Part shown: one piece after another, positions 4,625 to 61,066 of the stretch
Position numbering within the stretch: the stretch's first letter is position 1
How the letters are laid out: each line of letters starts with the position of its first letter
Origin: an uncultured Acidimicrobiales bacterium
GTDB taxonomy: Bacteria > Actinomycetota > Acidimicrobiia > Acidimicrobiales > SHLQ01
Assembly: GCA_938038815.1 (NCBI GenBank)
Contig: CALHTF010000013.1
Location: 36,588 to 100,587, forward strand
Length of the DNA: 64,000 bases
Direction: 5' to 3'
Notes under the pieces: model-generated
The model's database searches: none
Told to the model about the DNA's origin: nothing
The model's input: only the letters and a program-made list of their open reading frames with translations
Position numbers and translations under genes: made by a program

Positions 4625-5953
4625 CTAGTCACGAAGCAGTACTTCGGCCAGCACTTCGAGTCCCGCTACCCGGCTGCCCTTTACGAGCACGGCGTTGCCG
4701 GGACCAGACACTCCGAGTTCTTTGAGCTTGACGCTGGCATCGACCCGGTCGGCAACCTGGTGTTCTGCCCCGTAGTCGGGAGCGTCGATCGCGATGATCT
4801 CGATCCCGAGCATCTCGGCGACCGACGCAACCCGGCGGTGTTCTTCGAGAGCCGCGTCACCCAACTCGCCCATCACACCAAGCATGGCGACTCGCCGCTC
4901 GGCGGGGATCTTGGCCAACGACTCCAAAGCGGCGATTACCGAAAGCGGGTTCGCGTTGTAGGCATCGTTCACGACGGTGAGGCCCGACGGACTGGTGGCC
5001 ACTTCCATGCGCCAAGGCGACCACTCCGGAGCAGCGAGTCCGGCAGCGATTGTTTCGCCGGGCACCCCGACCGACAAGGCGACCGCAGCGGCCGCCGCGG
5101 CGTTGGCCACGTTGTGTTCGCCGCGAGCTCCGAGCGCGACGTCGAAGGTTTCCCAGTCGCTCTCGATCGTGAAGGTCGACGTGAGGTCGTCGTTCATCGT
5201 GACCTCGACCGCCCGAACATCGCCCATGCCGATGCCGAACGTGATCGACCGAGCCGAAGTGCGAGCGCTCATCGAAGTAACCTCGGGCACCATGGCGTTC
5301 AGGACAGCGAGCCCGTCGATCGGCAACGATTCGATCAATTCGCCTTTGCCTTGCACCACTGCTTCGAACGACCCAAACTCCGACGTGTGGGCCATGCCGA
5401 CGGTGGTCACTACGCCAATCGTGGGTTGCGCTATGTAACAAAGGAACCGAATGTGGTCGGTGCCTCGGGCACCCATCTCGACCACGGCGCACGCGGTATC
5501 GGCCGGCGCGTTAAACAACGTGAGCGGCACTCCGAGCTCGTTGTTGAGCGACTTCACGCTGGCGTGGGTCGACCGATCGGCGGCGACCGCGGCAGCGATG
5601 AGATCCTTCGTGCTGGTCTTTCCGGCCGACCCGGTAACCCCAACCACATCAGCAGCCAACCGCTTGCGGACGGCCATCCCGAGGGCTTGCAAGGCCAGTT
5701 CGGTCTCTTCCACCACGATGGCGGTGGCCGATCCGGCGACCTCGCGACCTGGTTGGGCGGTGAAGTACGCGGCCGCGCCAGACGCGACGGCTTGGTCGAC
5801 GAAGTCGTGCCCGTCGCGCTCGGCCACCACCGGCACAAACAGGTTGCCGGGTACAAGTTCTCGGGAGTCCTGGGTTGCCCCTTCGACCTCGACGTCGGGT
5901 CCGACGATGGTTCCCGAAACGGCCGCCGCGATTTCGCTCGTAAGCATGCGCAT
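4625..5953 (-). CDS. murF: UDP-N-acetylmuramoyl-tripeptide--D-alanyl-D-alanine ligase
   Basis: MRMLTSEIAAAVSGTIVG..., the Mur ligase P-loop VGVTGSAGKTSTKD, plus NNELGVPLTL and DAYNANP motifs. Start set at the ATG at 5953; the track ORF extends spuriously to 6250. Confidence 0.9.
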   Translation of the reverse strand: MRMLTSEIAAAVSGTIVGPDVEVEGATQDSRELVPGNLFVPVVAERDGHDFVDQAVASGAAAYFTAQPGREVAGSATAIVVEETELALQALGMAVRKRLAADVVGVTGSAGKTSTKDLIAAAVAADRSTHASVKSLNNELGVPLTLFNAPADTACAVVEMGARGTDHIRFLCYIAQPTIGVVTTVGMAHTSEFGSFEAVVQGKGELIESLPIDGLAVLNAMVPEVTSMSARTSARSITFGIGMGDVRAVEVTMNDDLTSTFTIESDWETFDVALGARGEHNVANAAAAAAVALSVGVPGETIAAGLAAPEWSPWRMEVATSPSGLTVVNDAYNANPLSVIAALESLAKIPAERRVAMLGVMGELGDAALEEHRRVASVAEMLGIEIIAIDAPDYGAEHQVADRVDASVKLKELGVSGPGNAVLVKGSRVAGLEVLAEVLLRD

Positions 5954-6032
5954 CCCCACAGTATTGCTCGATTCGGCCCCGGTGAGACCCCTCCTGTTTC
6001 TCGAACCGACATTGGCACTACAGTCGTCGTTC

Positions 6033-7109
6033 ATGAGCGAGCAAAAGACCCGGGTGATCGTCCTGTTTGGTGGACGTTCAGCCGAGCACGATGTTTCCTG
6101 CGTCACCGCCCGACATGTGTTGAGCGCCACCGACCCGAACAAGTACCAGGTCATCCCGATCGGCATCACCAGAGACGGTGCGTGGGTTCGGGCCGACGAT
6201 GCGCTCGCCGCCCTCAAGTCCGGCGCCGACGCACTGCCCGACGCGCTCAAGCCGGTGGGTTCTGATTTCGACCTGCTGCCATCGGTACGCCAGGCGGTTC
6301 ATGAAGGCCAGCAGGTCGTGGTCTTTCCGCTCATGCATGGGCCGCTCGGCGAAGACGGCACCATGCAGGGATTGCTCGAAATCGCCAACGTTCCCTACGT
6401 CGGTGCCGGCGTGCTCGGCTCGGCCCTGGCGATGGACAAGATCAAAGCCAAAGAGACCGCGGCGTATCACGGGATTGCCCAAGCCAATTGGCGAGGCCTG
6501 CACGCCACCGAGGTGCACGACACAACCGCTGACGAACTCATCGCCGAGCTTGGTCTTCCGTTGTGGATCAAGCCCGCCAATATGGGTTCGTCGATCGGGG
6601 TCAGCCGGGCCTATAACGCCGACGAGGTTCGGGCCGGACTCGACCTCGCTGCGTCGTACGACGAGTGGATCGTGGCCGAAGAAAACGTCGATGGTCGCGA
6701 GATCGAGATGGCCGTGCTCGGCAACCTTGAACCCGAAGTCTCGTTGCCCGGAGAAATCGAGCCGACCGAAGGGTTCTACAGCTACAGCGACAAGTACATC
6801 GACGGGTCGGCCGGACTCTTGATCCCCGCTCCCCTGTCCGATGCCGAGATCGCTGAGGCCCAAGCACTCGCCGTCAAAGCCTTCAAGGCCTTGCGATGCG
6901 AAGGCATGGCCCGGGCCGACTTCTTCTACGACGCCGGCGGTCGAGGCTGGCTACTCAACGAACTCAACACGATTCCGGGCTTTACGCCGATCTCGATGTA
7001 CCCAAAGATGTGGGAAGCATCCGGACTCGAGTATTCGGCACTCATCGACCGACTGGTCGAGCTAGCGATCGAACGATTCGAACGTCGTCCACGACGGACC
7101 GATCACTAG
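6033..7109 (+). CDS. ddl: D-alanine--D-alanine ligase
   Basis: MSEQKTRVIVLFGGRSAEHDVSCVTA..., HGPLGEDGTMQGLLE, and an ATP-grasp C-terminus ending in NELNTIPGFT. Start set at the ATG at 6033, in frame within track ORF 5451..7109. Confidence 0.9.
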   Translation: MSEQKTRVIVLFGGRSAEHDVSCVTARHVLSATDPNKYQVIPIGITRDGAWVRADDALAALKSGADALPDALKPVGSDFDLLPSVRQAVHEGQQVVVFPLMHGPLGEDGTMQGLLEIANVPYVGAGVLGSALAMDKIKAKETAAYHGIAQANWRGLHATEVHDTTADELIAELGLPLWIKPANMGSSIGVSRAYNADEVRAGLDLAASYDEWIVAEENVDGREIEMAVLGNLEPEVSLPGEIEPTEGFYSYSDKYIDGSAGLLIPAPLSDAEIAEAQALAVKAFKALRCEGMARADFFYDAGGRGWLLNELNTIPGFTPISMYPKMWEASGLEYSALIDRLVELAIERFERRPRRTDH

Positions 7110-8035
7110 CTCGGCTTCGACTTGTTCTCGCCCCGCTTCAGCAAGATCAGCGGCACCAGAAAGACGGCGGCCAGCACGGCGGCAATGAGTAGGTAGACGC
7201 CAAGCCCCGACCCTTCCTGCTCGATGTTCGGTACGAGTTGGGCTTCGCCTTGGGCGGCCTCTTCGGTTGGCTCGTCGACTGGGTCTACGGGCTCTGGTGC
7301 GTCTTCGATCACGACGATGCTCGTCGGGACCGGCTCGACTTCTTCTTCGATCGCATCGGGAGGGTCCTCGACCGGTGGTTCGATCGTGGTCGCCTGCTCG
7401 GGCAACAAGAAGGTGCTTTCGGGTTCAGACGACGGCGGCGCAACCGTGGTTTCGGTTGCGCCATCGGTGGGCTGGGAGGTGGTGGGCGCCGGTGCTGCGG
7501 TGGTTACCCGGGGAACGCCGTCGACTTCGCCTCGACGGGCCGCCATCTGTTCAAGGCCAACCGTCAGTCCTGCGGTGTACGCGCCCTCGCCGAATTGAGG
7601 GTTCATGATGCGATTGAGAATGACATCGATCGAGTCATCGAGCGACGGCGCCCAACCCGGTCCGTACTTCACCCGGGTGGCTTTGTCGTCGATCGACACC
7701 CCGATGACCAAAAGGTCGCCCACGTAGTTGCCGATGACGTCGACCCATCCACAGTCGGCGGCGAGCTGGGCCAAGGCGTCATCGAGCGACCCTGGTGTCG
7801 AGTCCCAAACCCGGACCCGCACCGGACCAAACTTTTCAGCGTCCGACGCGGCGATTACTACCGGCGTTGCGTCACCGAGCTGGGTGCTGTTGTCGACCAC
7901 GATCGACTCGCAATCGAACGCCACGCGGTCGGCTGAGGCGAGCGACGGGATCAGCACGCTCGAGACCACCAGTGCTACCAGCGCGACGCAAAGGCCGACG
8001 AGCGGGCGAGGAGTACGGAGATCGATGCTGGTCAC
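7106..8035 (-). CDS. TPM-domain (TLP18.3/Psb32-like) membrane-anchored protein with acidic Pro-rich linker
   Basis: N-terminal TM/signal (LVGLCVALVALVVSSVLIPSLASA). A TPM-like core follows (DLLVIGVSIDDKATRVKYGPGWAPSLDD...GEGAYTAGL), then a C-terminal TM (GVYLLIAAVLAAVFLVPLILL). GTG start at 8035 is tentative. Confidence 0.55.
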   Translation of the reverse strand: MTSIDLRTPRPLVGLCVALVALVVSSVLIPSLASADRVAFDCESIVVDNSTQLGDATPVVIAASDAEKFGPVRVRVWDSTPGSLDDALAQLAADCGWVDVIGNYVGDLLVIGVSIDDKATRVKYGPGWAPSLDDSIDVILNRIMNPQFGEGAYTAGLTVGLEQMAARRGEVDGVPRVTTAAPAPTTSQPTDGATETTVAPPSSEPESTFLLPEQATTIEPPVEDPPDAIEEEVEPVPTSIVVIEDAPEPVDPVDEPTEEAAQGEAQLVPNIEQEGSGLGVYLLIAAVLAAVFLVPLILLKRGENKSKPS

Positions 8036-8108
8036 AATTTCCAATCGGCAGCCCGACAGTGAAGACAAGGATGAGACAACGGACGGGGTGGAGGGGATCT
8101 CCTGGGGT

Positions 8109-8699
8109 TCAGGCAACCAGAGCGGAGTGCAGGAACCGCAGCAGTTCTTGTCGTCGGTGCACCATCGATCGTAGCGTCGGCTCGATCCCGAGGGCCCGCG
8201 ACACCTCAACCTCGGTGGCTACCCCCACGATGGTCGAGTACGCCGACAGCATCACGATGTTGGCATCGGCTTGCTGGAAGCGCCCGGCCCGCATCTCTCG
8301 CTTGAGAAACAGTCGCCCGCGGGCGATCAACGGTTCCATCTGGGTGGTCAGGCGGTGAGCGGTGGACGAACCGGGGCGACTGACCTCCCGCAGAAGCCCG
8401 AGCAGTTCTGGCCGCGCGAGAGCTAGGCGGAACATGCGGCGTACGAGCGCCTCGACCCCGTCCCAGCCCGGCCCGGCGTCGACAAGGGCGTCTTCAATCG
8501 TGGTGCGGAAGTCCTGGCCCGCCTGGTCGACGACCGCTGCGAGCAAAACTTCTTTAGAGGGAAAGTGGTACAGAATCGTCTGCTTCCGGATCCCGAGATC
8601 GCGGGCCAGCGCATCGAGGGAGGTGGCGTCGTATCCGTTGGTACCAAACGACGCGGTGGCGGCGAGCAGCACCCGTTCTTTGGTCGAAAGATCATTCAC
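8109..8699 (-). CDS. TetR/AcrR family transcriptional regulator
   Basis: N-terminal HTH: KERVLLAATASFGTNGYDATSLDALARDLGIRKQTILYHFPSKEVLL. Confidence 0.85.
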   Translation of the reverse strand: MNDLSTKERVLLAATASFGTNGYDATSLDALARDLGIRKQTILYHFPSKEVLLAAVVDQAGQDFRTTIEDALVDAGPGWDGVEALVRRMFRLALARPELLGLLREVSRPGSSTAHRLTTQMEPLIARGRLFLKREMRAGRFQQADANIVMLSAYSTIVGVATEVEVSRALGIEPTLRSMVHRRQELLRFLHSALVA

Positions 8700-8743
8700 T
8701 GACCAAATGGTAGAGAACGGTTGGCGTTTGGTAGAAATGCAGC
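8700..8743. promoter_or_regulatory. Divergent TetR / FAR-operon intergenic region with TGGTAGA direct repeat and ACCAAA..TTTGGT inverted repeat
   Basis: Sequence gaccaaaTGGTAGAgaacggttggcgtTTGGTAGAaatgcagc lies between the divergent start codons at 8699 and 8744. The operator role is inferred only. Confidence 0.25.
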
Positions 8744-11080
8744 GTGATACCTGAGCAACTGGCGGGCAAGCGCATCGCCATCACCGGTTCGACCGGATTC
8801 TTAGGGACCGCCCTGGTCGAGCGGCTGCTTCGTAGCGCGCCCGACTGTGAGCTGGTCCTGTTTGTGCGACCCGGACGACGAGGTGCCTCCGCCCGGGTCA
8901 AACGCGACATTCTCAAAAACAACGCCTTCGATCGCTTGCGCGACGAGTGGGGCGACGAGTTCGACTCGATCTGCGAAGCCCGGGTGCACGGCTACCCCGG
9001 CGACGTCGGCACCGACGGACTCGGCCTCGACGATGAGGGCCGGGCTGCCTTGGCAAGCTGCGACATCGTCATTCACTCCGCGGCCGCCGTGTCGTTCGAC
9101 TCCCCAATCGACCTGGCCGTCGAAGTCAATCTGCTCGGTCCAGTGCGGGTCGCCGAAACCCTCCACGAGCTCGGTGCGTCGCCCCATCTAGTGGCCGTCT
9201 CCACCTGTTACGTGGCCGGAAGCCGCCGCGGCGCAGCACCCGAAGAAGCGGTCGACGACAGCCCGTTCTACGTCGATGTCAATTGGCGCAACGAAGTCGA
9301 CGCCGCCCGTCGAGCTCGCACCGAATTCGAAGACAAAAGTCGCGAGGTCGAGCGACTCGAGGAGTTCACCAATCGGGCCACCTCGGAGCTCGGCGCCGCT
9401 GGACGACCAGCGATCGCCGCCAAGACCGAGCAATTCCGCAGCCGGTGGGTCATCGACCAACTCGCCGAGGCTGGCCGAGCCCGGGCTTCCTCGCTTGGCT
9501 TCCCCGACTCCTACGCCTACACCAAGGCCTTGGGCGAGGTCGCGCTGGCCGAAGTCCGAGGCGACCTTCCGGTATCGACGGTGCGCCCCGCGATCATTGA
9601 GTCTGCGATGGCCGAACCGGTACCCGGCTGGATCCGCGGCTTTCGCATGGCCGAACCGATCATCATCAGCTACGCCCGAGGCCTGCTTCCCGAATTCCCC
9701 GGCGTGCCCGAGGGCATCGTCGATGTGATTCCGGTCGACATGGTCGTCGCTGCGATCTGTGCGGTCGCCGCCCGTGGGCCGATCGAGACCGAGTCGGGCA
9801 AACCCGACATCACCCAGGTCGCCACCGGATCGATCAACCCTCTTCGTTACGGCCGCCTCGTCGACCTCGCCGAAGCGTGGTTCACCGCCAATCCCTTGTA
9901 CGACGAACTCGGCCAGCCCATTGCGGTTCCCGAGTTCTCCTTCCCGGGCCGCGGCCGGGTTCAGCGCCAACTCAGCCGGGCCAGCACATCGCTCGAGCGG
10001 GCCGACAAGGCCCTGTCGATGCTGCCACTTCGAGGCAAGCCTGCCATGTACACCGCCGGGCTCGGCGAACAGAAAGAACAGGTCGAGGCCGCCACCGGAT
10101 ACGTCGAGTTGTACGGCGCCTACGCCGAGTGCGAGGCCGTGTACGGGCTCGACCGACTCATTGCGCTTTGGGAGTCGCTCGACGCCGACGATCAAGAAGC
10201 CTTCGCCTTTGACCCTCGGGTTATCGAATGGTCGACCTATGTCACCGAGGTGCATTTCCCCTCGGTGGTGAAAGCCGGTCGCGTAAAGACGACCCCAGGC
10301 CGCAAGACCGGCCCGACTCGGGCCGAACGCCTGCGGGGCCAGGTTCTCGACGAGCGCCGCGAACTTGCCGTCTTTGACCTCGAGAACACCCTTATCGCCA
10401 GCAACGTGGTCACCTCGTACGCGTGGCTCGCGAGCCGCCAACTCCCCGACCGCGACCGGGGGCGGTTTGTGATGCGGACCCTGATGGAAGCCCCTGCGCT
10501 GCTTGCGCTCGACCGCCAAGACCGCAGCGACTTCCTGCGCCACTTCTATCGGCGCTTCGAGCACGCCAGCGTCGATCAACTCGAAGCCGACTCGGCCGAA
10601 ATGTTCAGCGACCTGATCTTGGCGAAGTCGTTCCCCGCCGCTATTCGACGGGTCCGGGCCCATCGGGCCGCAGGACACCGCACGCTGCTGATCACCGGCG
10701 CCCTCGACCTGGTGGTCAAACCCCTCGAGCCGCTGTTCGACGACATCATCGCCGCCAAACTTGGCGAGACCACCGACAAGACCGACCGGCTTACCTACGA
10801 CGGCAAGCTCACCCGCGTGCCACCGACCGGCGAAGCCCGGTACCAGGCCTTGGCCGACTATGCCGCGGAACACGATCTCAACCTTCGGGAGGCGGTCGCC
10901 TACGCCGACTCGGCGAGCGACCTCCCCATGCTCGAAGCGGTCGGGTTCCCCGTGGCGGTAAACCCCGAAACCAAACTGGCCTCGATCGCCCGCAAACGCG
11001 GGTGGCTGGTCGAACTCTTCGCCAAAGCGCCCGGCGGCCCTCGCAAACTCATTCCACTCGCACCCAGGAGATCTGCCTGA
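8744..11080 (+). CDS. Fatty acyl-CoA reductase (NAD_binding_4 / male-sterility type) fused to a HAD-IB hydrolase domain
   Basis: N-terminal Rossmann motif ITGSTGFLGTALVERLL plus YAYTKALGE (YxxxK). The C-terminal half has HAD motifs: VFDLENTLI (DxxxT-like), LITGALD and YADSASDLPML. The architecture resembles mycobacterial AcrA1-type proteins, from memory. Confidence 0.8.
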   Translation: MIPEQLAGKRIAITGSTGFLGTALVERLLRSAPDCELVLFVRPGRRGASARVKRDILKNNAFDRLRDEWGDEFDSICEARVHGYPGDVGTDGLGLDDEGRAALASCDIVIHSAAAVSFDSPIDLAVEVNLLGPVRVAETLHELGASPHLVAVSTCYVAGSRRGAAPEEAVDDSPFYVDVNWRNEVDAARRARTEFEDKSREVERLEEFTNRATSELGAAGRPAIAAKTEQFRSRWVIDQLAEAGRARASSLGFPDSYAYTKALGEVALAEVRGDLPVSTVRPAIIESAMAEPVPGWIRGFRMAEPIIISYARGLLPEFPGVPEGIVDVIPVDMVVAAICAVAARGPIETESGKPDITQVATGSINPLRYGRLVDLAEAWFTANPLYDELGQPIAVPEFSFPGRGRVQRQLSRASTSLERADKALSMLPLRGKPAMYTAGLGEQKEQVEAATGYVELYGAYAECEAVYGLDRLIALWESLDADDQEAFAFDPRVIEWSTYVTEVHFPSVVKAGRVKTTPGRKTGPTRAERLRGQVLDERRELAVFDLENTLIASNVVTSYAWLASRQLPDRDRGRFVMRTLMEAPALLALDRQDRSDFLRHFYRRFEHASVDQLEADSAEMFSDLILAKSFPAAIRRVRAHRAAGHRTLLITGALDLVVKPLEPLFDDIIAAKLGETTDKTDRLTYDGKLTRVPPTGEARYQALADYAAEHDLNLREAVAYADSASDLPMLEAVGFPVAVNPETKLASIARKRGWLVELFAKAPGGPRKLIPLAPRRSA

Positions 11081-12696
11081 TGGCAAGCCAGCCCAAACGG
11101 GCGCCTCGCCCCGGACTCGTACTCGACGTCGACCGGTCAACCCCGCCCGTTTTGTTCCACCACGGCGAAGGGTTCCGCCTAGAAAAGCTGCCGCCTGAGC
11201 GGTCGCGGATTATCTATCCCGCCGAACCATTGCCCGGCCTGGCCGACCCCGACGGCGCAATTCGCGACGCGCTCGCCAACCCAACCGGCGACAGCGAACC
11301 GCTGCACGCACTGTTGTTCGCCGGCATGAAGCTGACGATTGCGTTCGACGACATCTCGTTGCCGCTGCCGTCGATGCAAAAGCCCGACATCCGCCAGCGC
11401 ATCATCGAAGCGGTACTCGACCTCGCGGCCGCTGCTGGGGTTGACGATGTCCACCTCATCGCCGCACTCGCCCTGCACCGCCGGATGACCGAACCCGAGT
11501 TGCGCCACGCGGTCGGCGACCGGGTGTACGACGCCTTTGCCCCGCAGGGGTCGTTGTACAACCACGACGCCGAAGACCCCGACGGCATGGTCATCTTGGG
11601 CCAAACCCCTCACGGAGAAGACGTACAGATCTCCAAGCGGGCAGCCGAAAGCGATCTGGTCGTGTACGTCAACATCAACATCGTGTCGATGGACGGCGGC
11701 TGGAAATCGACCGCTACCGGACTCAGCGGCTACCAAGCGCTCAAGCATCATCACAACCCGGAAACGATGCGCAACACCAAGTCGATGATGGACAAAGACA
11801 ACAGCGAGCTGCACCGCTCGAACTGGCGTCAGGGCAAAGTCCTCAAAGACTCCGACCTCAAGATCTTCCAAATCGAGACCACGATCAACAACAACACGTT
11901 CGGCCACGATGGCCCGATGTCGGTGCTGCAAAAGCGCGAGTGGGAATGGTCGCCACGCGACCGCGCCTCGTTTCTGGCGATGCAGACCGGGCTCAAAGCA
12001 ATGTCGGGCCGAGCTCGTCGCAATGTCTTCCAGAGCTGGAAGGCACCCTATGAGATGACCTCGGTACAGGCCGGCGAGGTAGAAGCCGTCCACGACAAAA
12101 CGATCGAGAACGTCTACAAACAGCATCTCGTTCCGGTCGAGGGACAAACCGACATCATGACGATGGGCCTGCCGTACATCTGCCCGTATAACGTCAACTC
12201 GATCATGAACCCCATTCTGGTGATGTGCCTGGGACTGGGGTACTTCTTCAACATGTACAAGGGTCGTCCGCTGGTGCGCGAAGGTGGCGTGCTCATCATG
12301 AGCCACCCGACGCCGTGGGAGTTCCACCCGGTTCATCACCCGAGTTACATCGATTTCTTCGAGCAGGTCCTCACCGAAACGAAGGACCCGTCGGAGATGA
12401 GCGAGAAGTACGAAAAGCAGTTCGCCGAAGACGAGTGGTACCGCCACCTGTACCGGACCTCCTACGCCTACCACGGCGTGCACCCGTTCTACATGTGGTA
12501 CTGGGGCGCTCATGCGCTCGAACATCTCGGCCAGGTCATCATCGTGGGCGGCGATACTCGCTCGGTCCGCCGCCTTGGTTTCCGGCCGGCGTCGACGCTC
12601 AACGATGCGCTCGAGATGGCCACCGATGTGGTTGGCCCCCAGCCGACGATCACCCACTATCACAACCCGCCGATCCTTATGGCCGACGTGACGTGA
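11080..12696 (+). CDS. LarA-like (lactate racemase N-terminal / DUF2088) domain protein
   Basis: The ATG at 11080 overlaps the upstream TGA (TGATG). LarA-like blocks are present: LTIAFDDISLPLPSMQKPDIRQRIIEAVLD..VHLIAALALHRRMTEPE and VNINIVSMDGGWKSTATGLSGYQALKHHHN. Confidence 0.7.
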   Translation: MASQPKRAPRPGLVLDVDRSTPPVLFHHGEGFRLEKLPPERSRIIYPAEPLPGLADPDGAIRDALANPTGDSEPLHALLFAGMKLTIAFDDISLPLPSMQKPDIRQRIIEAVLDLAAAAGVDDVHLIAALALHRRMTEPELRHAVGDRVYDAFAPQGSLYNHDAEDPDGMVILGQTPHGEDVQISKRAAESDLVVYVNINIVSMDGGWKSTATGLSGYQALKHHHNPETMRNTKSMMDKDNSELHRSNWRQGKVLKDSDLKIFQIETTINNNTFGHDGPMSVLQKREWEWSPRDRASFLAMQTGLKAMSGRARRNVFQSWKAPYEMTSVQAGEVEAVHDKTIENVYKQHLVPVEGQTDIMTMGLPYICPYNVNSIMNPILVMCLGLGYFFNMYKGRPLVREGGVLIMSHPTPWEFHPVHHPSYIDFFEQVLTETKDPSEMSEKYEKQFAEDEWYRHLYRTSYAYHGVHPFYMWYWGAHALEHLGQVIIVGGDTRSVRRLGFRPASTLNDALEMATDVVGPQPTITHYHNPPILMADVT

Positions 12697-13613
12697 CCTT
12701 CGAACTGAAGCGCCCGCAGATCAAGAAGCCGCTCGCCAAGCTGCCGTTTCCGCTGCGCGCCCCGTCGACCCCGCTTTCGGTCGAACCGCTTCCGGCCGAC
12801 GAAAACACCGGAGCAAACTACGACACCGAGTGGGCTCGGTCGCCGGGTGCCCGGGCCTTCCGCGGCGCGTTGACCACTGCGGTCATGAAGCCGGCGATGA
12901 CCATGCTCGCTTCGCCCACGGTCAAGGGTCTCGACCGACTCGACAGCCTCGACGGTCCAGCGATTTTCGCGGCGAACCACCACAGCCATCTCGACACCCC
13001 ATTGCTGATCACCACGATCCCCGAACCATGGCGCAGCGAACTCGTGGTCGGCGGCGCGGCCGACTACTTCTTCAGCTCGCGAGCCAAAGGCGCCGTAGCA
13101 GCCCTCACGCTGGCCGCGTTTCCCGTCGAGCGCGACAGCACCGGACGCAAGACCGTCGATCTGGCAGCCGAAATGCTCGACGAAGGTTGGAGCATCTTGA
13201 TCTACCCCGAAGGCGGCCGGAGCCCCGATGGTTGGGGCCAACCCTTTCGACGCGGCGCGGCCTACCTTTCGAAGCGCTGCGATGTGCCGGTGGTACCGAT
13301 CCATGTCGAAGGCACGGGTCGCATCCTGCGCAAGGGCCGCAAACTGCCGAACCCCTCAACGTCGAAGATCACCTTCGGCGCGCCGGTCAAGGCCAACGAG
13401 GGCGAACGAACCGCCAGCCTCAGCGAGCGGCTCGAGGCATCGGTCGCCGAGCTTGCCGATGAAGCCACCACCGACTGGTGGACGGCCCGCCAGCGGGCCC
13501 ACGCTGGCACCACTCCCCCAATGCACGGCCCCAACGCCGGAGCCTGGCGCCGGGTGTGGGCGCTCGACCAAGACCGCCGCAACAAACCGAAACGAACCTG
13601 GCCCCGGCTCTAA
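12693..13613 (+). CDS. Lysophospholipid / 1-acyl-sn-glycerol-3-phosphate acyltransferase (PlsC family)
   Basis: The GTG at 12693 overlaps the upstream stop (GTGA). Acyltransferase motifs are present: HxxxxD box FAANHHSHLDTPLL, plus FPVERD and IYPEGGRS. Confidence 0.8.
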   Translation: MTFELKRPQIKKPLAKLPFPLRAPSTPLSVEPLPADENTGANYDTEWARSPGARAFRGALTTAVMKPAMTMLASPTVKGLDRLDSLDGPAIFAANHHSHLDTPLLITTIPEPWRSELVVGGAADYFFSSRAKGAVAALTLAAFPVERDSTGRKTVDLAAEMLDEGWSILIYPEGGRSPDGWGQPFRRGAAYLSKRCDVPVVPIHVEGTGRILRKGRKLPNPSTSKITFGAPVKANEGERTASLSERLEASVAELADEATTDWWTARQRAHAGTTPPMHGPNAGAWRRVWALDQDRRNKPKRTWPRL

Positions 13614-19273: not shown

Positions 19274-20839
19274 TTAGCCGAAGGTGCAGGTGTCGCCACC
19301 GGTCATCGACCGCAGGCGGATGTTGTTGTTCGTTCCACCGGTCGAACCGTAGATCGGCCCCTGGTCGTTCAAGCGGTAGGTCTGGTTGTCCGCGTCGACC
19401 ACGAGGCCATCGCCGTAGAACGGTTCGAGGTCCTTCGCCCGCACCCCAACGCCGGCTCCCCGTTTGGTGACCAACCCCTCGGGCGCAGCGGTTCGCCGGT
19501 TCTCGACGTGCCATTGCACAAACCGGCGCGGACCCGATCCGTCGGCTTGTTCGCCCGCAAAGATCAACTGCAGATCGCCAATCGCAACAATCCGAACCTC
19601 TGGCGCCTCGCACCGAGCGTCGGGGCCAAACCCGGAATCACTGCTCGGGAACCCGGCGGCTATCGCTACCTGCTCGAGCGCAGCGTCAGCATCGAAACCA
19701 AACGGAACGTTCGCTTCATCGCCCGAGTCAGGTGCCAACACGATGCCGCGACCGCTCAGTGCAATCGGCCCCGGCCCTTCGAGTTCGGGCAGCGTGGTGG
19801 TGGTCGTGCTGGTGGTGGTCGACGTGCTCGTCGTGGTCGGTGTCACCGTCGTTTGGGTAACCGTCGTTTGGGTGGCAGTGGTCTCGACCGCCGGTGTTGT
19901 CGTCCCCACGCCATCGATGGTGGTCGTTGCCGAAGACGAGTTGTTGTTCGACGAACGAATCTGTAGGAACAACAAGCCGGCCAGCACCGCAAGGGTGGCT
20001 GCCGCTACCGCAATTGCGAGATACCAACCTCGCGACGACGACTTCGCCGGTTGTGGAGCGACGCGTCGCTGGGTCGGAGCCGGCGGCGCCACGGCGGGCG
20101 CGCTCGCCACCACCGGCACCGGTTCGGTATCGCCGAAATCATCGTCGGCCTCAAAGACCGTGTCGGGTCCTTCGGGGTCATAGATCGATTCGATCGTCGT
20201 GGGTTTGGGCGGAGGCTCCGGCAACGGACCTTCGAGATCTTCTCGGGTGACGAGCGGCATCGGGACCGGCTGGGTCAGTTCGAGCCCGTCCTCCAACGCC
20301 TTCGACGACAAGACCGCTGCGCCGTAGGCGCCGAGGTAGGCCGGTTCGAGTTGATCGCCGCCCTCCGATAATGCACTGGCGATCGCAATGGCCTCATTCG
20401 AGGCACTGAGCGTGATGTTGGTGATGCCCGCCCGGCCAGCAGCAGAAACCAAGGCGCTGGTCTCGTTACCGCGCCACGCCGCAGGATACGAGATCACCAC
20501 GTGCTGGGGCGGCTCACCGAACCGCTCGGCCGCTACCGCCACAACTTGTTCCAACAGTGCGCTGACCAGAACCTCGCCGGTGATCTGACGACCGTTGATG
20601 TCGGTCAGCGACGACCGTGAAAGCAATGCCAGCGGATCTTCGACAAACCCGCCCGGCTCAACCGCCGCGGCTTCGATAGCCGCCTCGCCGGCCGACACCG
20701 CGCCGGCTACCGAAACGTGAGCGACGGTGGCCATCGCGGCCGCGTTCTGCCCAACCGCCAGCAGGCGAACCTCTCGGTCGGCCAGGCTGGCAGCCATAGT
20801 TATAGACGCGCCGATGTCGATACCCAGGCGGTAAGCCAT
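19274..20839 (-). CDS. Membrane-anchored protein: truncated Hsp70/actin-like N-domain, TM helix, Thr-rich linker, extracytoplasmic C-domain
   Basis: N-terminus YRLGIDIGASITMAA...HVVISYPAAWRG resembles the DnaK phosphate-1 and connect motifs. The TM is WYLAIAVAAATLAVLAGLLFL. A TTTSTSTTTSTTTTT linker follows. The start overlaps the upstream stop by 1 nt (TAATG). Confidence 0.55.
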   Translation of the reverse strand: MAYRLGIDIGASITMAASLADREVRLLAVGQNAAAMATVAHVSVAGAVSAGEAAIEAAAVEPGGFVEDPLALLSRSSLTDINGRQITGEVLVSALLEQVVAVAAERFGEPPQHVVISYPAAWRGNETSALVSAAGRAGITNITLSASNEAIAIASALSEGGDQLEPAYLGAYGAAVLSSKALEDGLELTQPVPMPLVTREDLEGPLPEPPPKPTTIESIYDPEGPDTVFEADDDFGDTEPVPVVASAPAVAPPAPTQRRVAPQPAKSSSRGWYLAIAVAAATLAVLAGLLFLQIRSSNNNSSSATTTIDGVGTTTPAVETTATQTTVTQTTVTPTTTSTSTTTSTTTTTLPELEGPGPIALSGRGIVLAPDSGDEANVPFGFDADAALEQVAIAAGFPSSDSGFGPDARCEAPEVRIVAIGDLQLIFAGEQADGSGPRRFVQWHVENRRTAAPEGLVTKRGAGVGVRAKDLEPFYGDGLVVDADNQTYRLNDQGPIYGSTGGTNNNIRLRSMTGGDTCTFG

Positions 20840-22362
20840 TAGGAAACTTTTAGTTCCTCAGGGGCTTTGCCGGCGGGATAGGTACGGGCCAACTGTTCGG
20901 GGGTCGGGTCGACCTTGTCCGAGGCTTCGGGCGGCAGTTCGGCGCGAATCGCGTCCATGATCGCGGCGACCACTTTCTGCTCGCGCTTTTGGACCTGGGC
21001 TTTGGTCAGCTTCTTCGACGATTTCTTAGTCGACTTCTTGGCGCTCGACTTCTTTGACTTGGTGGCCGGAACCTTCATCGCTTTGGTGAGGTCGACCGGA
21101 GGGCCAAGCCGCACCCGCACTTTGGGCGGGCTGGTGATGTTCCACACCGCGGGGAGCTTTGCGTTACGGGGCCACACATCTTCGGATCCCCACAAGCCAA
21201 GAGGGATCACCGGCGCTCCGGTCTCGATCGCCAGGCGAGCAACACCGGGTCGACCTTCGAGTTCGGGGTCGAAGAACTTTGGCCCTCGCGGGATGGTGCC
21301 CTCGGGCAAGATAACGACAACCTCGCCTGCTTCGAGCGCCGAGATTGCCCGTTCGAGAGGTTCGCCCGAACCCGAACCTCGGTCGACCCGAATCGTGCCG
21401 AGTGACTTTACTACCTGCCCAACCACCGGTGCATCGACGACCTCTTTCTTGGCGAGGAATCGCACCGGCCGACCGACTCGGGCCATCGCGAAGCCGATAA
21501 CCAGCGGGTCGAAGTAGCTGCGGTGATTCGCCGCAATGATGACCGGTCCCTCTTTCGGCACAAAGTCGGTGCCGTCGATGTCGAACCGGGCGTAGGGAAC
21601 CATCTCGGGGCGAGCAACGGCGAGCACGGCCTCTTGGGGTTCGGTTCCGAGCACCTTTGGGACACCGTCGGGCACGTCGAGGTAGGCAACCGGCCACCGC
21701 ATGGCGGTCGCCGCAACCAACAGGCGGGGGTCGGGGTTGACCGCGACCGGATGTTCGACGGCCCGCAGAAGCGGAAGGTCGTACCGGCTATCGGAGTAGG
21801 CGTAACTCGATGCGAGATCGACCCCGTTCTCCTCGCACCATTCAGCGACGGCGTCGCGTTTACCGGGCCCCCACACGTAGTGGCCATCGACGGTGCCGTC
21901 GTACTTGCCTTTGCTCTCGCCGTACTTGGTGGCGATCACGTCGTCGAGGCCCAGCAGGTCGCCGAGCGGCTTGCAGACCGTCATCGGACTCGTGGTTGCC
22001 ATAACCACCTTGCGTCCTTCTTCGCGGTGCCAGTCGATCAACTGACGGGCATAGGGCTGCAGTAGCGGTTCGAGTTGTTCGGCTGCGGCTTGGCCGGCCT
22101 GGGCGACCTTTTTGGCATCCCATCCTTTCGAGAACCGGATCCCGAATCGAGCAAGAGCCATCGACGGACGGTTCTCGCCGACCAGGTCAAAAAGGCCGAA
22201 CAAGGCGTCTTCGACCGGTGACTTTGCGGTGGTGAGCAACCCGACGTCGCGCAGCGCTTGGGAAACCACGGGGCCGCTGGCCCCGGCCAGCAGCGTCCGG
22301 TCAAGGTCGAAGAATGCTGCATTCGTTGCACGTTGCTTTGATTTGGCCACAGGTTCTCCCAT
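20839..22362 (-). CDS. plsC: Bifunctional HAD-IB phosphatase-like / 1-acyl-sn-glycerol-3-phosphate acyltransferase (Rv2483c PlsC-like fusion)
   Basis: Start set at the ATG at 22362 (MGEPVAKSK). HAD motifs are FFDLDRTLL and YSDSRYDLPLL. Acyltransferase motifs are AANHRSYFDPLV (HxxxxD), IRVDRG and ILPEGT. The tail is Lys-rich. Confidence 0.8.
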   Translation of the reverse strand: MGEPVAKSKQRATNAAFFDLDRTLLAGASGPVVSQALRDVGLLTTAKSPVEDALFGLFDLVGENRPSMALARFGIRFSKGWDAKKVAQAGQAAAEQLEPLLQPYARQLIDWHREEGRKVVMATTSPMTVCKPLGDLLGLDDVIATKYGESKGKYDGTVDGHYVWGPGKRDAVAEWCEENGVDLASSYAYSDSRYDLPLLRAVEHPVAVNPDPRLLVAATAMRWPVAYLDVPDGVPKVLGTEPQEAVLAVARPEMVPYARFDIDGTDFVPKEGPVIIAANHRSYFDPLVIGFAMARVGRPVRFLAKKEVVDAPVVGQVVKSLGTIRVDRGSGSGEPLERAISALEAGEVVVILPEGTIPRGPKFFDPELEGRPGVARLAIETGAPVIPLGLWGSEDVWPRNAKLPAVWNITSPPKVRVRLGPPVDLTKAMKVPATKSKKSSAKKSTKKSSKKLTKAQVQKREQKVVAAIMDAIRAELPPEASDKVDPTPEQLARTYPAGKAPEELKVS

Positions 22363-27364: not shown

Positions 27365-28474
27365 CTACCGGACCTCGTAGTAGAGGTTTGCCGGGTCACC
27401 AAAGTCATGTTGTTCAAAGTGCTCAAAGCCTGCGTCGCGACACATCTGTTCGGCGACCGGCGGGCTAAAGCCCAAGGTGCCGAGGCCGGCGCCGCCGGGT
27501 TCGGACATCGCCGACGACATGCAGCTCGATACCGAAAACCCGTAGTGCATGGCGAGCATCGGGTTCTTGTGGTTCTTGACGAAGTCGCCCGATGATCGGA
27601 TGTCTTTGATCAGCCAACACGCACCCGGCTTCATCGCGGCCTTTATCGAGGCGATCACCTCGGCCGGTCGAGTCATGTCGTGGATGCAATCAAAGGTGTA
27701 CATGAAGTCATAGGTGGGCTCGCTGGGAAGGTCTTCGCCGCCGGCATGAATGAACTCGATATTGGTAAGGCCGTCGTCGGCTGCTTTCTCTCGAGCAATC
27801 GTCAGAGCGTTGATCGACGGGTCATAACCATGGAAGGTCGAGTTGGGGAACGCCTTGGCAAGGGTCCGCAACGCCAGGCCGGCGCCGCAACCCACGTCGG
27901 CCACCGCCGCTCCGGCTTCGAGTTGGGTCTGCACACCATCGAGCGCCGGGATGATCTGGGGTACAAAAGCGATCCGGGCCCACGGTCCGAGCATGCGTTC
28001 GGTCCGGTGAGCGCCATTCGGGCCAAGCTGATCCCACGAGAGGCCAATCCCGGTGGTAAACGCCTCGGCGAGCTTGGTGACGATCTCTGGTTCCTGGGGT
28101 GCAGCGAAGGCGCCGGCGGCAAAGAACAAGCTGTGGTTCTCATCGGCGAGCACCGAAGCGCCCACCTCGGTGAGTTCAAAGGTCTCGGCGTCGGCGTCGT
28201 AGGAAAGTAACTTCGCTGCTTCCTGACCCCGAAGCCATTCGAGGATCCAACGCGGATGGTAGCCCGTCTGCTCGGCCACTTGGTCTGCGGTGAGCGGGCC
28301 TTTGCCCGCCAAGAATCGGTAGAGGCCTAGCCGGTCGCCCAGATGGATCATCAGCGACACCATCTCGCCCATCTTGTAGTTGTAGACCGTGAAGGCAAAT
28401 GCCGATGCCTCATCGGGGTCGACGCCGCTTGTGTCGAGGTTTGAGATGTCAAAGTCTGGTGCTTGATCAGCCAT
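27365..28474 (-). CDS. Class I SAM-dependent methyltransferase with N-terminal winged-helix-like domain
   Basis: SAM motif I VADVGCGAGLALRTLA, then the acidic loop HGYDPS, and FDCIHDM. Start set at the ATG at 28474 (MADQAPDF). Confidence 0.75.
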   Translation of the reverse strand: MADQAPDFDISNLDTSGVDPDEASAFAFTVYNYKMGEMVSLMIHLGDRLGLYRFLAGKGPLTADQVAEQTGYHPRWILEWLRGQEAAKLLSYDADAETFELTEVGASVLADENHSLFFAAGAFAAPQEPEIVTKLAEAFTTGIGLSWDQLGPNGAHRTERMLGPWARIAFVPQIIPALDGVQTQLEAGAAVADVGCGAGLALRTLAKAFPNSTFHGYDPSINALTIAREKAADDGLTNIEFIHAGGEDLPSEPTYDFMYTFDCIHDMTRPAEVIASIKAAMKPGACWLIKDIRSSGDFVKNHKNPMLAMHYGFSVSSCMSSAMSEPGGAGLGTLGFSPPVAEQMCRDAGFEHFEQHDFGDPANLYYEVR

Positions 28475-28588
28475 AGGCCGATCCTTGCACACCGCTACCG
28501 GCAATCGAAAAAACCTGATTGCTCTACTACTGTGACCACACGTCGGCGATTGGTCGACTTCGCTAGTTCAGGGGGAACAGCACAAACG

Positions 28589-30124
28589 ATGGAAGTAGCA
28601 CTCACCATCCGCGATCACATCGAACGGGCCGCACTGGTCTACGGCGACCGGGTCGGCATCGTCGACGAACCTATGCAACCGTCGGCCCCGCTACCGGACC
28701 TCACCTACCGTGAGACCCTCACCCGAGCGAAGGCGCTCGCCGCCGGGCTCGAGAAGGCTGGTATCGCTCACGGCAGCCGGGTTGCCATGGTGTCGCAGAA
28801 CGCCGCCCGCCTGCTCGTTTTTTTGTACGGCGTGCCCGGCTGGGGCCGAGTGGCCGTGCCGGTGAACTTCCGCTTGAGCCCCGCCGAGGTGCAGTACATC
28901 GTCGATCACTCGGGAGCCGAAATCACCCTGATCGACCCCGAACTCATGGAGGCCCACAGCGGTCTACAGAACACCAAGGTGATCGAGATTGGGTCAGCCG
29001 AAGAAGAAGCGTTGTTCGACTTTGATTCCGAACCCACCGACTGGGAGTGGGACGAGAACGCTACCGCCACGGTCAACTACACCAGCGGCACTACCGCCCG
29101 CCCCAAGGGCGTCGAGATGACCCACCGAAACCTGTGGGTCAATGCGGCCACGTTTGGCTGGCAGGCCGGGGTGAACGACCGCGACGTGTACCTGCACACC
29201 CTTCCGATGTTTCACTGCAACGGTTGGGGTATGCCGTTCGCCGTCGCCGGCATGGGGGTGAAACAGGTGGTGTTGCGAAAGGTCGACGGGGCCGAGATCC
29301 TGCGGCGGGTCGAGTCTCATGGCGTGACGCTCATGTGCGGAGCGCCTGCGGTTCTCGCCGCCATCCTTGAGGCCGCCGCCGACTGGGACGGCGAGGTGCC
29401 CGGCAAGGGAACCGTCCGAATCGTTTGTGCGGGTGCGCCACCCCCAACGGTGGTTATCGAACGCTGCGAGACCGAACTCGGCTGGGAATTCATCCAGATC
29501 TACGGCCTCACCGAAACCGCTCCCCTGCTCACCATGAGCCGCTGCCGATCCGAGTGGGACGATCTCACCCCCAACGAACGGGCCCAAAAGCTGAGTCGCG
29601 CCGGCGCACCGGCGCTCGGGGTTCGGATCAAGACCAGCCAGTCGGGCGAGTTCTTGGCCCAAAGCAACGTGGTGCTCAAGAGCTACTGGGAACAACCCGA
29701 CGCCACCGCCCAGGCACTGGAGGGCGGCTGGTTCCATACCGGCGACGGTGGCGTGGTCGACGACGAAAACTATGTCGTCATCTCCGACCGGAAGAAAGAC
29801 GTCATCATCTCGGGCGGCGAAAACGTTTCGTCGATCGAGGTCGAGGATGCCTTGTTTAGCCATCCCGCCGTCTCGGAGGTTGCGGTCATCGGCGTCCCGC
29901 ACGAGAAGTGGGGAGAAACCGTATTCGCGCTCGTCGTGTTGAGCGACGGTCAGGAAGCGACCGAACAGCAACTGATCGACCATTGCCGCGAGTTGCTCGC
30001 CCACTATAAGTGTCCAACCTCGATCGAGTTCCGCGACGAACTCGCCCGCACGGCGACGGGCAAGCTCCAGAAGTTCAAACTGCGCGAGCCGTACTGGGCT
30101 GGCATGGAGAAGAACATCAACTAG
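28589..30124 (+). CDS. AMP-dependent acyl-CoA synthetase / ligase
   Basis: AMP-binding motif NYTSGTTARPKGV, plus YGLTET, GWFHTGDGG and a C-terminal TATGKLQK. The ATG at 28589 is preceded by GGGGGAA. Confidence 0.85.
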   Translation: MEVALTIRDHIERAALVYGDRVGIVDEPMQPSAPLPDLTYRETLTRAKALAAGLEKAGIAHGSRVAMVSQNAARLLVFLYGVPGWGRVAVPVNFRLSPAEVQYIVDHSGAEITLIDPELMEAHSGLQNTKVIEIGSAEEEALFDFDSEPTDWEWDENATATVNYTSGTTARPKGVEMTHRNLWVNAATFGWQAGVNDRDVYLHTLPMFHCNGWGMPFAVAGMGVKQVVLRKVDGAEILRRVESHGVTLMCGAPAVLAAILEAAADWDGEVPGKGTVRIVCAGAPPPTVVIERCETELGWEFIQIYGLTETAPLLTMSRCRSEWDDLTPNERAQKLSRAGAPALGVRIKTSQSGEFLAQSNVVLKSYWEQPDATAQALEGGWFHTGDGGVVDDENYVVISDRKKDVIISGGENVSSIEVEDALFSHPAVSEVAVIGVPHEKWGETVFALVVLSDGQEATEQQLIDHCRELLAHYKCPTSIEFRDELARTATGKLQKFKLREPYWAGMEKNIN

Positions 30125-55000: not shown

Positions 55001-55397
55001 CGACGGCAAACATGCATCCGTCGGTCGCGCAGTCGAAGGGGCCGTCATCGGTCTGGATCTGGCGACGGGCCGAAAACTCGAGCCGAAATTCGCCTTGTTC
55101 GTTTGCGCCGCCCGCCACGACGATCCCGTTATCGCACCCGCGGTCGGCGGTGGCTGTACGACGACACTGAAACCCGATCACGCCGCTCCAGGCCGGCACC
55201 CCAGACCCGGTGACCACAACCCGATCGCCGGTAACCAGGTCGTCCGCAGGTGCCGCGGTGATCGAAATCGAATTGTCACCAAAGCCGCCCTGGGCGCCGG
55301 CGATCTCGTCTCCCGCCGAGGCCAAAAGCAGGGTGAAGCCACCGATCAACCCGATCGCAAAACCCAAAAGACGACGTCCATTTCGGGTACTCAACAT
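52068..55397 (-). CDS. Large secreted protein composed of nine tandem neocarzinostatin-family (Ig-like, two-disulfide) domains
   Basis: The ATG at 55397 is preceded by GGGGAG. Signal/TM: RRLLGFAIGLIGGFTLLLASAG. There are nine ~105-125-aa repeats, each with L-x-DG-x-V-x-V-x-G, then QC...C, then DC....C, ending in F(D). For example, ISVAPSSGLVDRNPITIEIDGFVTSYDVMQC..DC..DCAKATCVLQV resembles the neocarzinostatin apoprotein TVTPSSGLSDGTVVKVAGAGL..QC..AC..DCTTAACQVGL. Confidence 0.75.
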   Translation of the reverse strand: MLSTRNGRRLLGFAIGLIGGFTLLLASAGDEIAGAQGGFGDNSISITAAPADDLVTGDRVVVTGSGVPAWSGVIGFQCRRTATADRGCDNGIVVAGGANEQGEFRLEFSARRQIQTDDGPFDCATDGCMFAVVSLANGGDDSNRSGTANVTFDPSAPIPTPPSIKVKPARNLVDGDRVTVTGTGFVFNPNAWIQQCAAVRANSHDDCDFGANYYSDLGPNGEFFGMVNVQRMVSVGGQRVDCGARAGACTLRVNHGDETVEAPLHFDPSVKPPKPPKVTLSPRGGFVDRSEVTVTLDNLENGSRNYYFNFLQCPGAPTEQWAPGCRRLAQGLFESGAEVVTLTRALNLDGEVFDCAAAANACSISVFSNGGLVSSTGLRFARTNEPIPKPSVKYSKNLKRLTDGAKVWAKVQGSVDDVTVFQCPGEVRTGRGAGCRAVGGWYGFENGDAVSLLPAEGVKITGRVLRMLSRTNWDSGQPVQEMIDCAAKPGACNIVTWVPGVGQVGPARALTLVDEGAPAKPKLKLNKAKNLSHGDIVRMSFTGMTPGTSIAINQCPRGTTCGITGSFEEISKAKFSIEYSVARVIDVAGTRVDCGEKAKNCELQAVVTNGAELVLRKAISFDPNFEPPSPPALNIEPNTGLSNRQEVELRVNDFVGGFNAKQCALGISSSQANTYLYTDGCTVLGGAWTTDGTDSMAKVSLPRYVYRDGKRVDCAKGRGCNVFVFNQFEGRWSDSARVKFASSEPAPPKTSFTLSKTRKLVDGEDIQIAVGGDFGGVTVSQCVYENPVDGNGCRFMATSDESTLDGPIELTAAVSRDVRGRDCTKVSCWVVLRGKDQRVAASIRVRIDKSARRVKAPTISVAPSSGLVDRNPITIEIDGFVTSYDVMQCVEAADDELVDCQRITLSRPDSRTSTTTLAGQVRREVGDTDCAKATCVLQVRYATVDLAQSSKEQRLALSFDANAQPFPAPELAATPTTDLTNGDRITLSGKHWAPGSWLSFGVCKADVPTLPGEPGNGGSDWASECGEFPLATVLVDDTGAFTFDFVAAQSFRSFIGIQRFCTDDCVIYTTTGRDSARVPISFGKSAGATVTMTNTLEWPESVTNPEPSE

Positions 55398-55486
55398 GAC
55401 TGCTCCCCAGATGTGGCTGCAGCGCGCCATCCGCCGGTCGGTGGCCGCTACTAGGTCAGACGTTAGCGGAGGAGCATTAGTTCATC

Positions 55487-57218: not shown

Positions 57219-57227
57219 GTAACTTCC

Positions 57228-58016: not shown

Positions 58017-58025
58017 CCAAAAGTA

Positions 58026-58058: not shown

Positions 58059-58063
58059 TGCGG

Positions 58064-61022: not shown

Positions 61023-61066
61023 CCGGTCAGTTTCCGGCAAATTGCGGCGCCGACTACGTTCGTCGG

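Follow-up and report, generated by a model that had tools for sequence, protein, structure and literature searches.

Organization of the locus

We analyzed a 64-kb stretch of DNA from an uncultured Acidimicrobiales bacterium (hereafter, the window) and focused on three consecutive genes at positions 8744–13613. These encode a fatty acyl-CoA/ACP reductase (FAR) domain fused to a HAD-IB hydrolase, a homolog of the nickel-dependent lactate racemase LarA (LarAH), and a PlsC/AGPAT-type acyltransferase, next to a divergent gene for a TetR-family regulator. The four genes were verified in a listing of open reading frames (ORFs), and their junctions were read directly from the sequence. The features of the locus, together with one paralog from elsewhere in the window, are as follows (aa, amino acids):

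8109–8699, minus strand: TetR-family regulator, divergent to the operon (TetR_N, E=5.9e-13)
8700–8714: predicted operator palindrome TGACCA-AA-TGGTAGA (TGACCAAATGGTAGA), the local form of the conserved spacer palindrome TCTACCA-NN-TGGTAGA
8727–8735: second predicted operator site, of which the right half alone is left (TTTGGTAGA); it holds the TGGTAGA at 8729–8735
8744–11080, plus strand: gene 1, FAR domain fused to a HAD-IB hydrolase, 778 aa (Pfam, NCBIfam)
11080–12696, plus strand: gene 2, LarA homolog of the LarAH14/15/16 family (ElbC-type) with a single catalytic His, 538 aa (Lar_N, E=3e-35)
12693–13613, plus strand: gene 3, PlsC/AGPAT-type acyltransferase, 306 aa, the final gene of the operon (PF01553, E=1.2e-17)
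20839–22362, minus strand: HAD-IB::PlsC paralog, outside the operon and given for context only (HAD, E=6e-28; Acyltransferase, E=8e-27; motifs DLDRT and HRSYFD)

Genes 1 and 2 overlap in the sequence TGATG (11078–11082) and genes 2 and 3 in GTGA (12693–12696), and an AGGAG lies about 10 nucleotides 5' of the ATG of gene 2. This arrangement supports a translationally coupled operon of genes 1–3, presumably controlled by the divergent TetR. A first-pass annotation of this DNA, made from the letters alone, had reported the same overlaps, gene order, coordinates and 44-bp spacer, all of which hold, and the Pfam and NCBIfam domains match the gene identities that it had claimed.

In gene 1, the FAR part covers residues ~1–520 and the HAD-IB part residues ~540–760. 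Pfam places NAD_binding_4 at residues 13–338 (E=8.5e-52), besides a weak match to Sterile, and HAD at residues 542–731 (E=1.1e-24); the TIGR01490 HAD-IB model scores the protein at 98.2 bits against a cutoff of 98.3. The FAR domain has a Rossmann motif (GSTGFLG) and a YxxxK motif (YAYTK). Motif IV of the HAD domain was found as DSASD, while motif I reads DLENT rather than DxDxT (residues 542–548; window positions 10367–10387), Glu replacing the Asp at +2 that normally serves as acid/base. For comparison with other genomes, a scan of one genome per GTDB species detected relatives of gene 2 in at least 588 genomes, and the best 80 are called the related loci below. The DLENT form is kept in 76/80 of these. 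Unlike gene 1, the HAD::PlsC paralog and the ElbB-like HAD protein described below have the canonical DxDxT. In gene 3, both acyltransferase motifs are intact: the HxxxxD box, which the first-pass annotation had also noted, as HHSHLD at residues 96–101, and the (P)EGxR motif as PEGGR at residues 172–176.

A LarA homolog with a predicted single-histidine active site

Several independent comparisons place gene 2 in the LarA superfamily, as had been proposed from the letters. The NCBIfam model NF052592 (“NPN-dependent hydroxyacid isomerase, LarAH14/15/16 family”; NPN, nickel-pincer nucleotide) scores it at 892 bits, above the equivalog cutoff of 740. An hhalign comparison of its profile with L. 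plantarum LarA gave a probability of 99.5% over 367 columns and spanned both domains. Its AlphaFold (AF2) model has a pLDDT of 89.8 and a pTM of 0.90, and all 19 of the 19 significant Foldseek matches of this model are LarA-family structures, the best being 9q3k (TM 0.75/0.84).

The residues that bind the cofactor in LarA have counterparts in gene 2: D91 corresponds to D72 (ribose), K209 to K184 (covalent tether) and H225 to H200 (Ni ligand). The first catalytic His is also present, as H133 (H108 in LarA) in the motif LHRR. These four residues are intact in 120/120 of the closest Acidimicrobiia homologs and in 118/118 myxobacterial homologs, to which the window protein is ~48% identical, and the counterparts of D91, K209 and H225 are invariant in 18 diverse homologs classed as intact. 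Gene 2 is thus predicted, from both its sequence and its model, to have the LarA fold and a LarA-like cofactor site; a different fold for the middle gene, which would have undone the first-pass proposal, was not found.

The remainder of the LarA active site is altered. In the profile alignment, the equivalent of the second catalytic His, H174, falls inside a 4-residue deletion. The carboxylate-binding residues (LarA numbering) are not conserved either: R75 is replaced by L94, and Y294, Q295 and K298 are likewise lost. Because the second catalytic His and the carboxylate-binding residues are missing, gene 2 does not appear to be a classical 2-hydroxyacid racemase, and a two-base racemase acting on a carboxylic acid is unlikely. 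The label “racemase/epimerase” that the first-pass annotation gave to this protein is therefore unlikely to fit.

This active site has been seen before in a family context. LarAH groups 14 and 15 are described as being without the second catalytic His (Desguin et al. 2020; Gatreddi et al. 2025; PMC12611868). The window protein has the same signature as group 14 (D, Leu for R75, H, a gap at H174, K, H), shares the COG0204/COG0560/COG3320 neighborhood of that group, and is 58% identical to its Frankia member Franean1_4168. We found no essential difference between them, and the window protein can be regarded as a further member of group 14. The Frankia LarAH14 was purified and supplied with NPN, and was inactive in seven hydroxyacid isomerization assays, all of them on 2-hydroxyacids.

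The best match among solved proteins, both by sequence (phmmer E=1.8e-32) and by structure (TM 0.75/0.84), is with LarA_Sp and LarA_Bw of group 17 (9q2u/9q3k, 9q3j; Gatreddi et al. 2025). As in the window protein, these enzymes have the Asp, Lys and His that bind NPN and a single catalytic His, the second one being absent. One structure of the group 17 single-His enzymes was solved with NPN bound, and a phosphorylated ligand is suspected. The resemblance is limited: identity is only ~20–23%; group 17 has Asn for His174 and Lys for R75, whereas the window protein has a loop shorter by 4 residues and Leu for R75; and group 17 lies among glycolytic and sugar genes, including those for triose-phosphate and glycolytic enzymes, whereas gene 2 lies among lipid genes.

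Two specific identities were considered for gene 2 and rejected. One was a canonical lactate or hydroxyacid racemase, of which the catalytic and substrate residues are absent and for which the Frankia ortholog is inactive. The other was a gluconate epimerase of the GntE type; the enzyme called “LarAH15” in a 2024 JBC paper comes from Phytophthora and belongs to the GntE branch under another numbering, and is not group 15 of Desguin 2020.

Full-length LarAH genes that have lost NPN residues were also encountered. They lie at 8001–9602 of locus L089 and 8001–9536 of locus L090, and encode proteins 48–49% identical to the window protein. The substitutions are H to Q, K to H and H to N in L089, and H to N and H to Q in L090. 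Both belong to operons of the order FAR::HAD, LarAH, AGPAT, in which the FAR and AGPAT motifs are intact.

Conservation of the operon and its predicted operator

All 80 related loci belong to Acidimicrobiia, with 73–88% identity to gene 2, and include members of Microthrix, Aquihabitans, Salinilacustrithrix, Ca. Poriferisocius, Ca. Aldehydirespirator and IMCC26207. Wherever the contig reaches, FAR::HAD lies 5' and AGPAT 3' of the LarAH gene. The acyltransferase directly follows LarAH in 79/80 loci, and the contig of the remaining one stops at the LarAH gene. The three genes are thus co-linear across these Acidimicrobiia, as expected of the functional unit that the first-pass annotation had proposed. 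Variation is confined to additions: a 384-aa zinc alcohol dehydrogenase of the medium-chain dehydrogenase/reductase family (Zn-ADH) lies between FAR::HAD and LarAH in 36/80 loci, and three of these 36 also have a SnoaL-like ORF (for example, 8311–9462 and 9462–9995 of L048). The window has neither.

More distant homologs, and the comparison across phyla given below, were drawn from individual loci outside this set of 80. Two homologs of the intact class have no lipid context, P0137 (42% identical, from an archaeal-looking locus) and P0149 (39%); therefore, the functional link is limited to relatives with at least ~44% identity.

The association of these genes had been presented as undescribed, which does not stand. 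For LarAH group 14, neighbors of COG0204 (88%), COG0560 (88%), COG1063 (88%) and COG3320 (50%) are listed in Table S1 of Desguin 2020, and an NCBIfam model for the family exists. The gene association is therefore real, and had been tabulated before, in a supplement only and without interpretation.

The spacer between the TetR gene and gene 1 is 44 bp long (8700–8743) and holds TGGTAGA twice, at 8708–8714 and 8729–8735, so that both the repeats and the divergent TetR of the first-pass annotation are present. By our estimate, the chance of finding two such 7-mers within 44 bp is ~0.04, which by itself is of weak significance. A divergent TetR ortholog is present in 56/80 related loci, and the palindrome TCTACCA-NN-TGGTAGA occurs in the TetR/FAR spacer of nearly all 56, sometimes in two copies. 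The closest relative (L003) has an arrangement identical to that of the window, and L004 has two full palindromes. Since the TGGTAGA repeats are part of a palindrome conserved across related loci, they are not due to chance; a chance or direct-repeat element was ruled out in favor of a palindromic operator. The TetR repressor is predicted to bind this palindrome, which overlaps the divergent promoter region.

Relation to the elb ether lipid cluster

The first-pass annotation knew of no described pathway with a LarA-type gene between FAR and AGPAT. Such a pathway can be found in Myxococcus xanthus, where elbA–elbE are MXAN_1531–MXAN_1527 (PMC13012113, 2026 PNAS), and elbC is hence MXAN_1529. 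In Dataset S2 of Desguin 2020, MXAN_1529 is listed under LarAH group 15, together with STAUR_2303, sce8293, Hoch_3629 and Anaeromyxobacter proteins. M. xanthus ElbC is therefore a LarA homolog, a connection that is added by the present analysis. The neighborhood given for group 15 (COG0451, COG0560 and COG1022; Desguin 2020) resembles the elb operon of M. xanthus.

In that organism, alkyl and vinyl ether lipids need elbD. ElbA and ElbE are of the NAD-dependent epimerase type, ElbB is a HAD protein, and ElbD combines FAR-like, acyl-CoA synthetase (ACS), acyl carrier protein (ACP) and AGPAT parts; ElbC is given as of “unknown function” (PMC9131029). It is still without an assigned function in reviews up to 2026 (PMC9131029; PMC13012113). 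In M. xanthus, FAR apparently yields an aldehyde; no enzyme has been assigned to the step of this AGPS-independent route that forms the ether.

The window operon and the M. xanthus elb cluster (Lorenzen 2014; MIBiG BGC0000871) have the same four tightly linked modules: FAR-like, AGPAT, HAD (ElbB) and LarA homolog (ElbC). ElbC and the window LarAH also share the active-site signature with a single His and no carboxylate site. The layout is confirmed in a Myxococcota locus on a 4-Mb contig (L002), which encodes a HAD protein (232 aa), a Lar_N protein (543 aa), an ElbD-like protein with NAD_binding_4, Sterile, AMP-binding and Acyltransferase domains (1267 aa), and an Epimerase/3β-HSD protein (323 aa). 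A gene 2 homolog with 48% identity (P0125) belongs to Myxococcota. In BLASTP comparisons, residues 8–510 of the gene 1 FAR matched the N-terminus of the ElbD-like protein with 27% identity over ~500 aa (E=1e-37), including the Sterile-like C-terminal part; the gene 1 HAD matched the ElbB-like protein with 30% identity (E=1e-23); and gene 3 matched the AGPAT domain of the ElbD-like protein with 25% identity (E=6e-11). These matches support well the correspondence of gene 1 to the FAR of ElbD plus ElbB, of gene 2 to ElbC, and of gene 3 to the AGPAT of ElbD.

The same four modules occur in differing fusions across three phyla. A Chloroflexota locus (L085) has the order Zn-ADH, LarAH, DAGK-like, FAR::AGPAT, HAD, PlsY. 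The HAD-IB::PlsC fusion that the first-pass annotation had taken as a Rosetta-stone hint is real and lies on the minus strand, and the idea is strengthened by FAR::AGPAT in Chloroflexota and by the ElbD-like FAR::ACS::AGPAT in Myxococcota. Since the same modules recur in rearranged form, the fusions in three phyla are stronger Rosetta-stone evidence than the lone paralog. In locus L088 (6128–11987), a LarAH gene (44% identical) is followed by a GPAT-type acyltransferase with Acyltransferase and GPAT_C domains. Genes for NikR and for a ZnuA/ABC-3 metal transporter lie 1–4 kb 3' of this pair and hint at a link to nickel.

The window operon differs from elb in its FAR::HAD fusion, its separate AGPAT gene and its divergent TetR. 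In addition, M. xanthus elb has the epimerase-type genes elbA and elbE; some Acidimicrobiia relatives carry Zn-ADH instead, and the window operon carries neither. Judging from its domain content, the window operon is best described as a domain-shuffled, TetR-controlled elb-like module without ACS, ACP or short-chain dehydrogenase/reductase (SDR) parts, of a form typical of Acidimicrobiia.

A proposed pathway and its alternatives

We propose, with about an even chance of being right, that the operon encodes a pathway to ether glycerolipids, and that its LarA homolog carries out a redox-neutral hydride step on an intermediate of the glycerol-phosphate type. From a fatty acyl thioester, the FAR domain would produce the aldehyde or alcohol by reduction. 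At the C2-hydroxyl of the intermediate, the NPN tethered to the LarA homolog would carry a hydride transiently (“hidden redox”), and an alkyl ether bond would form between sn-1 and the fatty aldehyde or alcohol, with no net redox change and no stereo-inversion. Two versions can be envisaged. In the first, an enzyme-bound ketone of the dihydroxyacetone phosphate (DHAP) type would undergo an AGPS-like exchange at C1 with the fatty alcohol, and the hydride would then be given back. In the second, the hydride would pass to the dehydrated hemiacetal of the FAR-derived aldehyde to give alkyl-DHAP, which the associated ADH or SDR would reduce where present. AGPAT would then acylate the lyso-intermediate, and the HAD domain would remove or handle the phosphate. 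It is a reasonable inference that the product would be a 1-O-alkyl(-2-acyl) glycerolipid, while the specific chemistry given here to the LarA homolog is a hypothesis. The single acid/base His and the lost carboxylate site fit such a hydride-carrier step, because in either version a single acid/base residue would be enough and a carboxylate site would not be required.

The eukaryotic AGPS route (FAR1, GNPAT, AGPS, alkyl-DHAP reductase and AGPAT) likewise relies on a FAR, on acyl transfer by an AGPAT-type enzyme and on a C3 backbone that is phosphorylated, and the proposed LarAH step would take the place of AGPS (plus the reductase). Eukaryotic AGPS is FAD-dependent; no AGPS homolog is present in the operon or the window, and the catalyst here would, hypothetically, be a nickel-pincer enzyme instead. 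A wider form of the proposal is that ElbC-type LarAHs (groups 14 and 15) are the missing ether-bond-forming enzymes of AGPS-independent bacterial ether lipid synthesis. They would act as single-His nickel-pincer enzymes by a redox-neutral “reductive etherification”, in which the C2 hydride of glycerol phosphate (or of a 1-acyl or hemiacetal derivative) is borrowed and is returned during coupling to the fatty aldehyde or alcohol from FAR, or after it, to yield alkyl-DHAP or alkyl-glycerol 3-phosphate. We regard this wider claim as rather unlikely.

A number of observations weigh against the proposed pathway. No published case of ether lipids from Acidimicrobiia, Frankia or Kribbella came up in our literature search, and none could be detected in a Pontiella strain that carries an elbD homolog (PMC11868695). 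In the 2022 review (PMC9131029), insertions are described for elbA, elbB, elbD and elbE and none for elbC. According to Pfam, the operon holds no AMP-binding, PP-binding or SDR domain, and so is without the ACS and ACP parts of ElbD and without an ElbA/ElbE-type reductase; AMP-binding genes lie elsewhere in the window, at 28463–30124 and 61067–62707, unlinked to the operon. The Zn-ADH of the 36 relatives is absent from the window as well, and motif I of the gene 1 HAD departs from the canonical form. The degenerate LarAHs of L089 and L090, which Desguin's group 16 resembles, stand in orthologous operons, and therefore NPN catalysis is not indispensable to every version of the pathway.

Genes for synthesis of the cofactor are also lacking nearby. 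As the first-pass annotation had stated, the window has no larB, larC or larE: a Pfam scan found none of these families (LarB AIRC, LarC DUF111, LarE PP-loop) among the ~50 ORFs that cover it. In agreement, tblastn with L. plantarum LarB/C/E (plasmid pLP12-1) and with an actinobacterial set from Embleya (L091) found no match, either in the window or in the 10 kb on each side of the 80 loci. The best 120 matches of a database search with Embleya LarC all belong to the class Actinomycetes. The Embleya genes form a larB-larE/larA-like-larC cluster on the 3.1-Mb replicon of Embleya sp. NBC_00896 (L091, 5718–11152), which is unannotated in the PLSDB gene table.

In one alternative, the LarAH does not work as an NPN enzyme here. 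It would instead serve a FAR/AGPAT glycerolipid pathway as a subunit that does no catalysis or needs no cofactor, either as a scaffold or as a partner that binds lipid or substrate. Orthologous operons in which LarAH has lost counterparts of H133, K209 and H225 while FAR and AGPAT are intact would be explained by such a role, as would the occurrence of group 16 (K184 to G) in the same COG0204/COG0560 context (Desguin 2020), the lack of larBCE nearby, and the inactivity of the Frankia LarAH14 even with NPN. However, the strict presence of D91, K209, H225 and H133 in 120/120 and 118/118 homologs, at an overall identity of ~48%, would be difficult to account for if no cofactor were involved. The closest relatives by structure bind NPN, and the Frankia assays were limited to 2-hydroxyacids. 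We consider a subunit of this kind doubtful.

Two further alternatives keep an enzymatic role for the operon and change its product or its reaction. FAR plus an acyltransferase is the minimal logic of wax ester synthesis, and the operon might turn fatty alcohols into neutral or storage lipids other than ether lipids (wax-ester-like lipids, or an acylated fatty alcohol or diol), with FAR yielding the alcohol and the PlsC-type enzyme esterifying it. The lack of reported ether lipids in these taxa, and the Pontiella strain that has an elbD homolog and no ether lipids, would agree with this. Such a product is nevertheless unlikely, as it leaves unexplained the HAD domain, the LarAH and the PlsY, DAGK and GPAT neighbors of the relatives. 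Moreover, PlsC-type enzymes acylate lysophosphatidate-like acceptors, and the known bacterial wax synthases are WS/DGAT enzymes. Membership in the LarA superfamily and the NCBIfam name “NPN-dependent hydroxyacid isomerase” would suggest a classical racemase or epimerase. This enzyme would invert C2 of a 2-hydroxy acid (e.g., a 2-hydroxy fatty acid) or of a glycerol-phosphate backbone (glycerol 3-phosphate or lysophosphatidate to the sn-1-phosphate series). The deletion of the second acid/base His, the loss of R75, Y294, Q295 and K298, and the seven negative isomerization assays of the Frankia LarAH14 make it very improbable.

Other features of the window

A divergent pair of genes, for a Mur ligase (4625–6250, minus strand) and a D-Ala-D-Ala ligase (6030–7109, plus strand), overlaps in its maximal ORFs. 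This pair is also found 5' of the operon in L089, which indicates conserved synteny. A 521-aa ORF without a Pfam match (19274–20839, minus strand) shares position 20839 with the end of the HAD::PlsC gene, and the two are probably co-transcribed. A methyltransferase with a Rv2258c-like winged helix-turn-helix domain (27365–28504, minus strand) adjoins the AMP-binding ligase at 28463–30124 (plus strand). At 52068–55430 (minus strand), a protein of 1120 aa has a Neocarzinostatin-family domain at residues 175–264 (E=4e-27) and no other Pfam match. Finally, positions 55965–62707 (plus strand) hold three acyl-CoA dehydrogenase genes, a gene for an MDMPI/DinB-family protein and an AMP-binding ligase gene, which together look like a cluster for fatty acid or lipid catabolism, unlinked to the operon.

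Significance

The chief interest of these results lies in a bridge between NPN enzymology and the unsolved ether step of the ElbD pathway, rather than in this window itself. To those who study NPN enzymes, LarAH groups 14 and 15 are of unknown function, with an odd active site and acyltransferase and HAD neighbors; to those who study ether lipids, ElbC is a question mark. Both belong to the same family and have stood unconnected, and our literature search found no paper in which “ether lipid” occurs with “lactate racemase” or “DUF2088”. Viewing the Acidimicrobiia operon, the Chloroflexota clusters and elbB–D as permutations of one module offers a concrete candidate for the unassigned ether bond step, and the operon represents a minimal three-gene system for its reconstitution.

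If an ether-bond-forming LarAH is real, it would be the first role in a lipid pathway, and the first non-isomerase reaction, of an NPN enzyme of the LarA fold. If the LarAH is independent of NPN in some lineages, this would bear on how cofactor-dependent folds are repurposed. The proposal also predicts that alkylglycerol lipids, which are used as environmental biomarkers, may have unrecognized sources among the abundant Acidimicrobiia of marine habitats, sponges and activated sludge (Microthrix, Poriferisocius, Aquihabitans).

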